From the NCBI GenBank assembly GCA_026023565.1, contig JAPETS010000006.1, forward strand, positions 682,001 to 746,000: a DNA stretch of 64,000 bases. Reading direction: 5' to 3'. The position numbers were made by a program, and so were the translations under genes. Under the pieces are notes generated by a model. That model was given only the letters and a program-made list of their open reading frames with translations. It had not been told where the DNA came from and searched no databases. How positions within the stretch are numbered: the first letter of the stretch is position 1; every line of letters begins with the position of its first letter. This document shows positions 20,523 through 57,026 of the stretch, piece after piece. The stretch comes from Cirrosporium novae-zelandiae (lineage: Eukaryota).

Positions 20523-21238
20523 GCTGCTTTTTATTATTGTCAGGTAAGGAAACGGAGGATGGAAAATGGGCAAAAAATCTTAAATTACAAGGTCGTTATT
20601 TCCGATCATTCACTTCCATTAAGCGGTTAGGCTTTTGTGTATTTCTATTTATCAACACAGTCTCCTAATTCAAAAATGTCAAATCTACAATATTCACCGT
20701 GTGGCTTCCCCGCCCGTTGTTTGCTCGAGTGTTTGTTGATCTTGATGTGGCGATCTTCAGGATTTCTTGGCATGCCAGCTCAGAACTTATAATCCCAGCT
20801 GACATGTACCAGCAACTGACACGTGTAGCTCTGGTAAATGTTTTAGATGACTGTGCAACATGCATAATCTTGGCCTGGATCAATTCCCCATCGCCGCAAA
20901 GGATGCGGGGCACTGGATAAAAACCTATAGACTGTAAGTAACCGAAAATGACTATATACCTAGGTATGTGAATATGAATGCGAAATTACAATATGAAGTC
21001 TTGAATCTGAAAGCCAGCATATTCTATACTTTAACTATGAAACATTTGTGGGAGATGAACTCTCAGTAGTCACTCAGTCATATTTATGGACAGCTGCAAA
21101 CGCGCTATCTACAGATTGCCAACGCATCTTCCCACGAACCTAACCTTCATAATCTACTCCTAAAACTTTTCTAATCTCTGACTATGCAGTTTTCTTAATA
21201 ATATTATACAATTGTCGTCACACTCCTGAGCTCTCCCA

Positions 21239-53546: not shown

Positions 53547-54360
53547 TATGAACGGCAGTTCGGATATAGGCCTTTAGTACTGACTTGAAGACGTACCTCT
53601 AGAGCCAGGCAATCGCAAATCTGCTTTGACTAACCGTGGGCCTGTGATGTAACAAGCTGGAACGGATAGCTTGCTTGTTGTGGAGTGCCTCGGTGCCTTT
53701 GGGTTGCAGATACGAAACCAAAGAAAATAGCTCAAACAAGTCAAGGGTGGTGATCAATGGGGGGGGATCACAGGTAGTCAGAGATATTAGTGTACACATT
53801 CAGCAGGTTCGTAAGCATTCCAAATCTTTATTAAAATGGATTTGGGGAATACTAAGGTCGCTTGATATGGTTTGGTAATAGCTGGTATGTGTGTGTGTTG
53901 GTGTTTGGTGGTAGTTACAATGACTGTATTGTATGTATGTATGTAACATGTAACGTCAAATCTGATTAGCGTTTGAATACAAGGTTTCATGCTGAATAAG
54001 CAAAAGTACTTTTTCCCAAATTTCCCGCAAATGATTCCGTCATGGGTGACCCAGAGGGGGATTTCAATGATTCCAATGATTCCAATGATTCCACTACTTG
54101 GAGCTTTTCAGGTAACTTTGCCCGGGTTCGTGACCACAACTCGTCCGAAATAAACTGCCCCGCCCAGCCCAGAAGGTCCAGGTCTCTCATATCTGAGTAA
54201 CCACAAATATCATCACTACCCCCACTACTGCTAACTTATGAGAGAAGATTTCCATCCTCTCTTCTTGATTTCTAAATATCTCTCTCAAATCTTTTCATTC
54301 CACTTTATCATATCTATCAGTCAAATCATTCAAATACAATTCCAGAAATAATCCACAATC

Positions 54361-57026
54361 ATGGCAGACCATGCGTAAGTCCTTCCCATCTGTTGCTTGC
54401 CATCACCCCCACTATGTTTGTCAAAATCTACCTACCCCGTCTACCCCGTCTATCCCATCAATCTCGTTAAGCTGCAAATACCTATATTTAGAGTATTACA
54501 TGCTACTGTAAATAACGACAGCATCATCATCGAAGCTCCCCAATGTCGCCTCTAGATTGGAACGCATTGTCTTGCTCATACTTGCCTCCTTCAGTGCACG
54601 GCGTTTGGCCAACTTGAATGTCGGTGCTGCTCCGATTCAAGACGTCAATGGGTCGTGTCATCATTCCTGTGTTGAAATAAATAATCAGCATGGTATTATG
54701 GATGCTAATATATCTGGGTGTAGAGGATCCTGTGATTTCGGCCTCATTGGGCTGGCGGTGATGGGACAGAATCTGATCATGAATGGTAATCAATAAACCT
54801 CATTACAAGCGTGAACTTCTTTGCTGATACTAGGTTAGGTGCCGATCATGTAGGTATAAGACTATTCGCCCAATGCGATTGAGAATAGATATGATATCTG
54901 TCTTGTGGGCGACAACTTAGACTGATCAATACTGACCTCCATTAGGGATTCAAAGTGTGCGCTTTCAACCGAACTGTCTCAAAAGTTGATCGTTTCCTCG
55001 CAAATGAAGCACAGGGTACATAGATTTCTAATCAATTGAAGAAATAATACTAATTCTAAATAGGTAAATCAATTGTCGGCGCTCATTCGCTCGAAGAATT
55101 TGTATCCAACCTCAAGAAACCTAGAGTTGCTATGCTTCTTGTTCAGATAAGTCCTCTTTTCCAAGCAAGGATTTGCTGAGCATTGTATCTAACAAATCAT
55201 GCACGCTGGTCCCGCTGTAGATGGTATGTAACCTTATTAAACCCACGTATGGAGCCTTTCTCACTGGTTGTTATTGTAGCATTCATCGAGAAATTGGTCC
55301 CTCTTCTGGAAAAGGGTGACATCATAATAGACGGAGGAAACTCCCATTACCCGGACACCACACGGCGACAAAAATATCTGCAAGAGAAGGGTATCCTGTT
55401 TATTGGCACTGGTGTCTCCGGTGGTGAAGAAGGTGCTCGTTTTGGACCTTCCTTGATGCCCGGCGGTAATCCTGAGGCTTGGCCACGTGTCAAGGATATC
55501 TTTCAAAGTATGGCTGCCAAGAGTGACGGCGAACCCTGCTGTGACTGGGTCGGCGACGAGGGTGCTGGTCACTACGTGAAGATGGTGAGCAGACTTGTTT
55601 GTTGCTTTGAATGTTAAACGGAATACTAATTTTTACTTCAAAGGTACACAATGGAATCGAATATGGTGATATGCAATTGTACTTTTTTGAGCGTCTACGA
55701 ACGTCTATGAGATTAACTAATGATGTGTTAGGATCTCCGAAGCTTACGATATCATGAAGAGAGGTAGGTTATTCATCCAACAACCAGACAGCGAGCGAAA
55801 TAATCTAATACACCTATAGGCCTTGGAATGTCATACAAGGAAATGTCTGAAGTATTCGGGTAAGCTCTTACCTTTTTTTTACTGGCTTGGAGAACCCTCA
55901 ACTTACGGTCATTTTTCAATCCAGATCCTGGAACAAGGGCGTGCTTGACAGCTTTTTGATTGAAATCACCAGAGACGTTCTCGTAAGTTTTATGACAAAA
56001 TCTCCATGATTCGGCCCATCCTCACCATTTTTAGGCCTATGTTGATGAAGATGGAACTCCTCTGGTCGAGAAAATCTTGGACAAAGCTGGCCAGAAGGTA
56101 AGCACATTTGCGGTGGTACTCTCACACGCACATCAACTCACGATTATCAACAGGGAACCGGAAAGTGGACCGCCATTAATGCTCTCGATCTCGGCATGCC
56201 AGTTACTCTCGTCACCGAGGCCGTGTTTGCTAGATGTCTGAGCTCATTGAAAGATGAGAGAGGACGAGCGAGCACCCTTCTAAGTGGCCCCAAGCCCAAG
56301 TTCGAGGGTGACAAGAAGGAATTCTTGGCAAACCTCGAACAAGCGCTATATGCTTCCAAGATTATTTCTTATGCGCAAGGCTTTATGCTTATGCAGGATG
56401 TAGGATATGACCTTTATATCTCCTTAGTGGACATGTTCTAACAATATACGTATCAGGCTGCGAAGCAATACGGTTGGAAACTAAACAAGGTTAGTTCACA
56501 TTTACATGTTTGGCGCCTTAACTTTTGCTGATACAATTCAAACTCTAGCCATCTATTGCACTTATGTGGAGAGGCGGCTGCATTATCCGTTCAGTCTTCT
56601 TAAAGGATATCACCAACGCTTACCGCAAAGACCCCGAACTCGAGAACTTGCTCTTCAACGACTTCTTCAACAAAGCTATCCACAATGCCCAATCTGGCTG
56701 GAGATCCACGGTTGCATGGGCCACCATGAATGGCATTCCAACTCCGTAAGTTCAAAAAATCCATGCCACCCCATTCTACTTTCTTTTGAAACTCAACCTA
56801 ATAATTTTGTCCTAGCGCCTTCTCAACCGCCCTCTCATGGTTTGACGGGTACCGCGAGAAGGACCTCCCTGCCAACCTCCTCCAAGCGCAACGAGATTAC
56901 TTTGGTGCCCACACCTTCCGAATCAAGCCCGAATTCGCCAACGATAAATACAAGATCGGCGAGGATATCCACATTAACTGGACTGGTCGTGGTGGAAATG
57001 TCTCCGCCTCCACTTACCAAGCATAG
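54361..57026 (+). CDS. GND1: 6-phosphogluconate dehydrogenase, decarboxylating
   Basis: 16 core exons: 54361-54374, 54724-54785, 54839-54849, 54946-55015, 55064-55146, 55205-55223, 55280-55584, 55644-55678, 55732-55763, 55820-55859, 55925-55982, 56035-56097, 56154-56399, 56457-56489, 56549-56745, 56816-57026. Motifs [45 protein letters not shown] and QRDYFGAH. Intron 5 must be AT-AC to keep the conserved sequence. Confidence 0.96.

Follow-up and report, generated by a model that had tools for sequence, protein, structure and literature searches.

Results

The GND1 Locus and the Anatomy of Intron 1

The stretch analyzed here, hereafter the window, comprises 64,000 nucleotides (nt) of contig JAPETS010000006.1 (positions 682,001 to 746,000, forward strand) of Cirrosporium novae-zelandiae, a fungus placed in the Xylobotryomycetes within Pezizomycotina. 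At 54361..57026 on its + strand lies GND1, the gene for 6-phosphogluconate dehydrogenase (6PGD), whose first intron is our main subject. The gene model has 16 exons and 15 introns, and the coding sequence assembled from its coordinates measures 1479 nt, stays in frame and terminates at a stop codon. The resulting short isoform of 492 amino acids (aa) shares 81-84% identity with the full-length relatives P0030, P0095 and P0066, and the alignments contain 0-2 gap columns. The top database match to the large exon is P0002, a deposited 414-aa model (100% identity, 100% coverage) that bears the source name 'MAG: phosphogluconate dehydrogenase (decarboxylating) gnd1 [Cirrosporium novae-zelandiae]' and the domains PF03446 and PF00393; residues 81-492 of our model are identical to P0002 from its third residue onward. 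Both Pfam domains, as found on P0002, and the similarity over the full length indicate that the window gene belongs to the 6PGD family.

Exon 1 (54361..54374, + strand) consists of the ATG and 11 further nt; it codes for M-A-D-H plus two bases of a split Ala codon, and its end is in phase 2. The constitutive exon 2 (54724..54785, + strand) codes for the start of the Rossmann fold. Between them lies intron 1 (54375-54723), a phase 2 intron of 349 nt with the termini GTAAGT...GTGTAG. An initial annotation had singled out this intron for its length and had proposed that it conceals a frame-preserving 57-nt cassette exon, by which a rare exon-skipping event would produce an isoform with an N-terminal targeting or regulatory peptide. 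Our gene model reproduces the coordinates, splice signals and frames that had been given for the intron and the segment, and the intron is indeed much longer than the other 14 GND1 introns, which span 48-96 nt; it is about six times as long as the gene's median intron.

The 5′ part of intron 1 (54375..54594, + strand) extends over 220 nt from the donor GTAAGT to a proximal AG. It ends in a proximal 3′ splice-site module (54574..54594, + strand) composed of a branch-like GCTCAT at 54574-54579 with its A at 54578, a pyrimidine tract and the AG at 54593-54594; the branch-like A is located 16 nt from the proximal intron end. In an acceptor matrix built from 14 sites, which is too noisy to rank this site, the proximal acceptor scores -1.5 bits and falls within the range of the weakest real acceptors. 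Then follows the optional coding segment (54595..54651, + strand), 57 nt that make up 19 codons including the split ones, begin and end in phase 2 and contain no stop. It encodes the motif R-L-A-N-L-N-V-G-A at 54602-54628, whose R-L (54602-54607) would constitute residues 8-9 in either long isoform, and its GC content of 0.54 is exon-like (exons 0.50).

Directly downstream of the segment is GTCGTG (54652..54657, + strand), the candidate donor for a cassette and the sole usable GT in phase; another in-frame GT, at 54718, falls within the acceptor. In a donor matrix that is tiny, being drawn from the 14 GT donors of GND1 only, and under which weak donors may still function, GTCGTG scores -4.7 bits, and the 14 real GT donors reach 0.8-10.2 bits in leave-one-out scoring. 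Among the 25 GT sites in 54380-54780 it takes 20th place, and its C at position +3 is present in 0 of the gene's 15 donors.

The last 72 nt of the intron (54652..54723, + strand), which we call the spacer, could be a small intron in its own right or else an in-frame linker belonging to a 129-nt extension of exon 2. The spacer contains a distal 3′ splice-site module with the branch sequence GCTAAT at 54704-54709 (A at 54708, 15 nt from the intron end) and the AG at 54722-54723. Both the proximal AG, ending at 54594, and the distal AG, ending at 54723, are in phase with exon 1. The length of the spacer is a multiple of three, it lacks stop codons, and the whole 129 nt (54595-54723) is open; the third isoform that had been considered for this intron is therefore possible. 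Freedom from stops is found in 12% of mononucleotide shuffles of the spacer, and both properties together in 0 of the 14 other GND1 introns. The idea that the spacer is a duplicated intron was rejected, as a blastn-short search in the window returned the self match only.

A Conserved Peptide Encoded in Intron 1

Counterparts of the peptide encoded by the segment are found in many deposited 6PGD models. Among 21 relatives fetched, 12 proteins of 506-510 aa carry M..AVARLAGINVGGPARxxPS ahead of GDFGLIG, and in 5 others (491-493 aa) the first residues run directly into [AG]DFGLIG. The 12 aligned long N-termini all share A-R-L-A-G-I and the Gly at motif position 8. A profile of these N-termini matched 853 proteins at E<=0.001 among 8000 candidates scored. 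Of these matches 120 were listed, and all of the 26 named models taken from the matches listed contain the motif. The ARLAGINVGAP peptide, which the initial annotation had named, is thus present in database proteins, both in the 12 of 21 fetched and in the 26 of 26 named. Judging by source names, the motif-bearing models come from Aspergillus, Penicillium, Talaromyces, Monascus, Thermoascus, Ophidiomyces and many lichen-forming fungi, and further from Geoglossum, Bathelium, Candelaria, Chaenotheca and Sclerophora, a span that includes Eurotiomycetes and Lecanoromycetes. The same genera, including Aspergillus, Penicillium and Blastomyces, hold both 508-aa and 491-aa deposited models; 'Gnd1, putative' of A. 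fumigatus Af293 (P0283) is the 508-aa form.

We scored the window with a position matrix made from the motifs of 116 relatives (26 of them unique). The 10-residue motif of intron 1 reaches 17.7 bits, the best value in the 64 kb on both strands, and 0 of 5000 dinucleotide shuffles of the intron attained it (maximum 15.9 bits), in agreement with the suspected conservation of the peptide. The runner-up, A-L-L-A-G-N-T-A-G-N at 21126 on the - strand, scores 15.2 bits, which indicates the background level of the matrix, and is most likely a chance match. A near variant of the window's motif, R-L-A-N-L-K-V-G-P, is present in another fungus (P0032), where it is contiguous with exon 2.

At the codon level, relatives keep R-L-A-G, and the R, L and A codons vary synonymously in five relatives and the window (CGC/CGT/CGG/CGA, CTG/CTC/TTG and GCC/GCT/GCG-type changes). 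Over the nine core codons (6 sequences, 15 pairs), the proportions of synonymous and nonsynonymous differences are pS 0.54 and pN 0.26 (pN/pS 0.48), and in the adjacent codons of exon 2, which is near-invariant in relatives, they are pS 0.59 and pN 0.015 (ratio 0.025). The upstream intron shows an ungapped identity of 0.27. These values point to a protein-level constraint on the core, acting mainly at positions 1-5 and 8 and far weaker than that on the enzyme proper; with six sequences the test is a modest one, and the case for conservation draws mainly on the breadth of the protein alignment. Outside the core, the Arg of the 'PAR' linker is swapped for H, Q, P, W or C in relatives. A protein search with the window's read-through open reading frame (ORF; P0001, residues 28-94) among longer proteins gave 148 candidates and 0 significant matches, probably because this query retains the spacer and is short. 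On the strength of the alignments, we regard the 57-nt segment as a conserved coding element, the window's copy of a Pezizomycotina peptide.

Layout of Intron 1 in Relatives

Nine of 80 metagenome loci were examined (L001-L007, L017 and L050); the other 71 matched the Rossmann-fold part only. Six fungal loci share a layout in which an exon 1 of 14-17 nt ends in phase 2 and is followed by GTAAGT or GTGAGT, then by 118-191 nt from the donor to a proximal AG, then by the extension and finally by a distal AG just ahead of the [GA]DFG codons. The extension between the AGs measures 48-93 nt in L001-L005, and the long frame reads both AGs as the start of a Ser (AGY) or Arg (AGR) codon. Consistently, short ORF fragments on genomic or metagenomic contigs run, in 29 of 30 cases, uninterrupted from intron-like text through ...S|ARLAGINVG...PS|GDFGLIG to the next intron. 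In none of the relatives examined is the segment split; it is always joined to exon 2. From this arrangement, the event in relatives is read as an alternative 3′ splice site that adds about 17 aa and not as a cassette.

With its tiny exon 1, its in-frame proximal AG and the homologous peptide, the window copy can be grouped with the optional segments of intron 1 of fungal GND genes. What endures of the initial proposal is accordingly the conserved N-terminal coding element, upheld by the alignment of relatives and by the position that it shares with the yeast segment discussed below. Its cassette and exon-skipping part has not found support, the relatives being contiguous and the donor looking no better than a random GT. 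The description as rare needs qualifying, as the element itself is widespread in Pezizomycotina and included in many deposited models. In the window, two complete 3′ site modules stand 129 nt apart.

The branch sequences differ as well. Relatives have GCTGAC where the window has the proximal GCTCAT, and in L001-L004 and L007 this CTGAC stands just 5-6 nt upstream of the proximal AG; in L001-L004 it lies about 10 nt upstream of position 2000 (1866 in L004). The distal AG of L001-L004 has no further CTRAY ahead of it, and in L007 the same CTGAC stands 24 nt before the distal AG. An AG very close to the branch point tends to be poorly used, with the next AG taken by default, which would account for the minor status of the long form. 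The layout of L001-L004 suggests a single branch point shared by the two AGs, with steric exclusion limiting the long form. The extensions of L001-L003 are without an internal AG ahead of the distal one. In L005 the extension reaches 93 nt, lacks any in-phase GT and includes a separate CTAAC 12 nt ahead of the distal AG, and P0049 has a linker of 20 aa; these two cases indicate that long linkers are tolerated.

A related arrangement is seen in L006, an intron-poor GND locus of yeast type, in which M-L-R-L-S-Q-I-A-G-H-V-T-N-K-A-S (1986-2040) stands directly ahead of GDFGLIG. This segment encodes a TACTAAC branch sequence and an AG within itself, as Thr-Asn and Ser, and thereby appears to be a segment with a type 2 peroxisomal targeting signal (PTS2) whose coding sequence doubles as 3′ splice signals. 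Its R-L-S-Q-I-A-G-H-V at the equivalent place links the Pezizomycotina motif to PTS2 by position and by the pattern R-L-x-x-I.

Discussion

How might the segment of intron 1 be used? We lean, with guarded confidence, towards an explanation in which it is an optional coding element that is mostly removed by splicing to the distal site, and in which the long form arises by extension of exon 2 and carries a peroxisomal sorting peptide. We envision that most pre-mRNA is spliced from the exon-1 donor at 54375 to the distal 3′ site (branch GCTAAT, AG 54723) and yields the cytosolic 492-aa enzyme, and that a minority is spliced to the proximal AG at 54594, which would put R-L-A-x-(I/L)-N-V-G some seven residues from the start of the protein. 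In this lineage, an in-frame, stop-free spacer of 72 nt, carrying the distal branch point, would have come between the segment and exon 2. The long form would then most likely be a 129-nt extension of exon 2 (+43 aa), and a +19 aa form would be made only if the very weak GTCGTG donor were used. We rank the +43 aa extension somewhat above the +19 aa cassette, and both may occur; the extension appears at least as likely because the only in-frame donor scores below all 14 real GT donors, and a spacer divisible by three and stop-free is needed by the extension only.

The peptide itself might act as an N-terminal sorting signal that derives from the yeast GND PTS2, sending a small fraction of 6PGD, and with it NADPH production, to peroxisomes. 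The PTS2 consensus is (R/K)(L/V/I)x5(H/Q)(L/A), as given in an excerpt of PMC7214817. R-L at positions 1-2 and Ala at position 9 of the window's motif agree with it, and Gly at position 8 does not; that the motif fails the consensus had been pointed out in the initial annotation. In relatives, position 9 is G in 52, A in 39, L in 10 and S in 10, and many of them thus fail the consensus here too. We tentatively retain peroxisomal import as the leading hypothesis for the destination, at rather less than even probability. Use of the proximal site in this species, the ratio of the isoforms, the fate of the 72 nt and the peroxisomal destination are all what we infer rather than findings.

Several observations weigh against this explanation. 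A short N-terminus is found in 10 of 10 full-length relatives on contigs of 1.7-2.6 kb, which we take as transcripts because the genes carry several introns, and also in P0312, which clusters with P0079; some lineages with the short form have the extension in their genomic models. Among the profile matches listed, no long form was seen on transcript-like contigs. For A. fumigatus, Hurtig et al. (2020; PMC7491326) noted a potential proximal 3′ site and saw no junction reads. The long form may be very rare, conditional or unused. At the proximal site, CTCAT deviates from CTRAY; the site is nonetheless plausible because three other introns of the gene (6, 11 and 12), likewise without CTRAY, rely on CTCAC-type sites at a similar distance. 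The GC content of the spacer (0.36, compared with 0.37 in other introns) is intron-like and not coding-like, a value that would fit removal as an intron and a loosely constrained linker equally well. The codon-level signal is modest, with a pN/pS of 0.48 compared with 0.025 in exon 2. In L007, a lichen-type locus, both AGs are kept with 18 nt between them (2000-2018, A-R-I-V-A-S) and the conserved motif is deleted. Concerning the destination, 120 pattern matches among 226 stored proteins have G at position 8 in 114 cases and S in 1; the remaining 5 are chance matches in upstream intron text, and H or Q occurs in no genuine motif.

Dual targeting of pentose-phosphate enzymes to cytosol and peroxisomes by cryptic signals is an established fungal theme. 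Alternative 3′ splicing of Candida albicans GND1 reportedly gives a PTS2-bearing peroxisomal isoform, a result credited to Strijbis et al. in 2012 that is known to us through citing papers. Such accounts of the isoform stand in excerpts of PMC7214817, PMC3798809 and PMC7491326; according to the last of these, C. albicans GND has alternative 3′ sites of which the proximal one includes the PTS2, giving a peroxisomal enzyme from about 0.1% of the mRNA. As in the window, the same intron after the first codons is involved, and a proximal 3′ site adds a short peptide before the Rossmann fold. Unlike the C. albicans isoform, a minor form with a PTS2 reported to be functional, the window case has Gly for His/Gln and 72 extra bases and is known from sequence alone. 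Minor GND isoforms that include a PTS2 have been described in four yeasts, C. albicans, L. starkeyi, C. jadinii and Y. lipolytica (Hurtig et al., 2020; excerpts of PMC7491326).

Aspergillus fumigatus and Ustilago maydis offer further comparisons. In A. fumigatus Gnd1 (P0283), R-L-A-G-I-N-V-G-A likewise follows a proximal AG, with the distal AG 51 nt further on, and the short form has been seen in RNA. Unlike in Aspergillus, where the segment is contiguous with exon 2, the window has two 3′ site modules 129 nt apart; the contiguous-type loci L001-L004, none of which is named Aspergillus, also differ from it in having a single CTGAC 5-6 nt before the proximal AG. In U. maydis, Pgd1 acquires a cryptic PTS2, RISSLAAQL, via non-AUG initiation (Kremp et al., 2020; excerpts of PMC7214817). 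This case resembles ours in that a minor, N-terminally extended 6PGD has a sorting peptide just upstream of the normal start and supplies a small peroxisomal pool. It differs in that the mechanism is translational and the PTS2 working and true to the consensus, whereas the window case would operate via splicing and its motif fails the consensus. A literature search on GND splicing in Pezizomycotina or Aspergillus found nothing beyond Hurtig et al. (2020), passages in two further articles (PMC3597508 and PMC3866509) being irrelevant, and a search for the peptide string returned unrelated text only.

Alternatively, the segment may be a true cassette exon: the spacer would be removed as a second intron (GTCGTG, GCTAAT, TAG), giving a +19 aa isoform, and the major mRNA would be formed by exon skipping. 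We consider this unlikely, if the strongest of the alternatives. It would make a second, independent case of the shift from alternative 3′ site choice to exon skipping that is reported for Y. lipolytica GND, where exon skipping has been shown (Hurtig et al., 2020, RNA 26:1464; Fig. 5 legend in PMC7491326). The likeness to Yarrowia would then consist in the optional segment being a separate small exon inside intron 1; the difference is that Yarrowia, a member of Saccharomycotina, offers junction reads, and the window, from Xylobotryomycetes, a sequence-only case with a very weak donor. Such a cassette agrees with the segment itself, which is a multiple of three, in phase, stop-free and exon-like in GC content, and with the spacer, which has the GC content and length of a typical intron and CTAAT 15 nt from its end. 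Moreover, spacer removal would leave a linker of 10 aa, compared with 34 aa if it is kept and 7 aa in 111 of the 120 pattern matches of relatives. A weakness lies at the donor, which in the small 14-site matrix scores below 14 of 14 real GT donors, falls in the lower part of the local GT sites and has a +3 C that the gene uses in no other donor; within about 100 nt, an in-phase GT is expected by chance. In addition, no relative examined has a split segment, and the divisibility by three and stop-freedom of the spacer would be superfluous if it were spliced out.

It is also conceivable, though comparably improbable, that the long isoform is made and its peptide is not peroxisomal, having diverged from PTS2 or never been one, and acts as a weak mitochondrial presequence or as another sorting, regulatory or stability element. 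The systematic absence of H/Q from position 8 suits this view, and so does the finding that positions 3-5, which are 'free' in a PTS2, are invariably A, G and I across 12 sequences, a pattern more specific than a generic PTS2 needs; lichen-type motifs end in G-G and fail position 9 too. Set against this is the shared position with the yeast PTS2 segment and the common R-L-x-x-I pattern of L006. Within this family of possibilities, a mitochondrial presequence seems less likely than peroxisomal import because the long N-terminus, with two Asp and two Arg in its first 25 residues, carries almost no net charge and because the 'PAR' linker does not conserve its Arg.

We doubt that the segment is a relic, descended from the conserved extension and left behind when a 72-nt insertion with a new distal branch made the proximal site unused, its frame being open by chance or not yet decayed. 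Decay might be read from the off-consensus CTCAT in place of the relatives' CTGAC, from the two substitutions (G to N, I to L) and the extra Arg that the motif has relative to the consensus, and from the 12% of shuffles in which 72 nt are free of stops; L007 shows that lineages can lose the motif. However, the motif still attains the top score of the window, P0032 with its contiguous RLANLKVGP shows that N and L can be accommodated in the motif, all 129 nt form an open frame whose length is divisible by three, and CTCAC-type branch sites serve in three other introns of the gene. Very improbable, finally, are an ordinary constitutive exon, which many deposited models imply by including the segment and which conflicts with the short form of 11 of 11 transcript-like full-length relatives and with the coexistence of 508-aa and 491-aa models within genera, and an intron that owes its length, about six times the median, to a non-coding RNA within it, a candidate we rejected since no Rfam family matched in 54200-54900 at E up to 1 and the 5′ part of the intron has an ordinary fold (z = -0.47).

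Thus, the optional segment with an extended exon 2 is the reading that we prefer, and its general outline is already present in the literature and in deposited models; what our comparison adds is the split architecture in this lineage and the observation that, throughout the Pezizomycotina motifs compared, the PTS2 consensus systematically fails. The case of filamentous-ascomycete GND1 has so far consisted of one sentence on A. fumigatus, without junction reads. To this we add that the segment is conserved over several classes of Pezizomycotina, that many deposited models carry it as if it were constitutive, and that the motif systematically fails the key His/Gln position. A further-reaching idea, to which we assign a low probability, is that the strongly conserved A-R-L-A-G-(I/L)-x-x-G on a minor 6PGD isoform of filamentous ascomycetes is a PTS2 descendant with a fixed Gly at the place where validated PTS2 signals have His or Gln. 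It would then bind Pex7 as a ligand of a new class or act as a new signal for sorting or regulation, and it would have become a free-standing cassette here, in a second change to exon skipping after Yarrowia. If a fixed-Gly descendant of PTS2 were at work, the 'PTS2' label published for A. fumigatus would have to be revised.

Small Exons, an AT-AC Intron and the Deposited Model

The remainder of the 5′ half of GND1 holds further features that bear on its annotation. A micro-exon of 11 nt (54839-54849), which encodes part of G-A-D-H, and an exon of 19 nt (55205-55223) are both required for the gap-free alignment to relatives. The deposited model P0002 begins at an ATG within intron 5 and is without the 80 N-terminal residues, including the GxGxxG start of the Rossmann fold; this truncation is likely an annotation failure at the AT-AC intron and the tiny exons, such as the 11-nt one.

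Intron 5 (55147-55204, 58 nt) has AT...AC ends, with ATAAGT at its 5′ end, a terminal ...CAC and CTAAC 12 nt from the 3′ end. AT-AC splicing is the only join of ...MLLVQ to AGPAVD... that keeps the conserved protein, and read-through meets a stop. Relatives are intronless at this position, their genomic ORF fragments reading ...MLLVMAG.PVD... unbroken. Intron 5 is probably an ascomycete example of the rare U2-type AT-AC introns.

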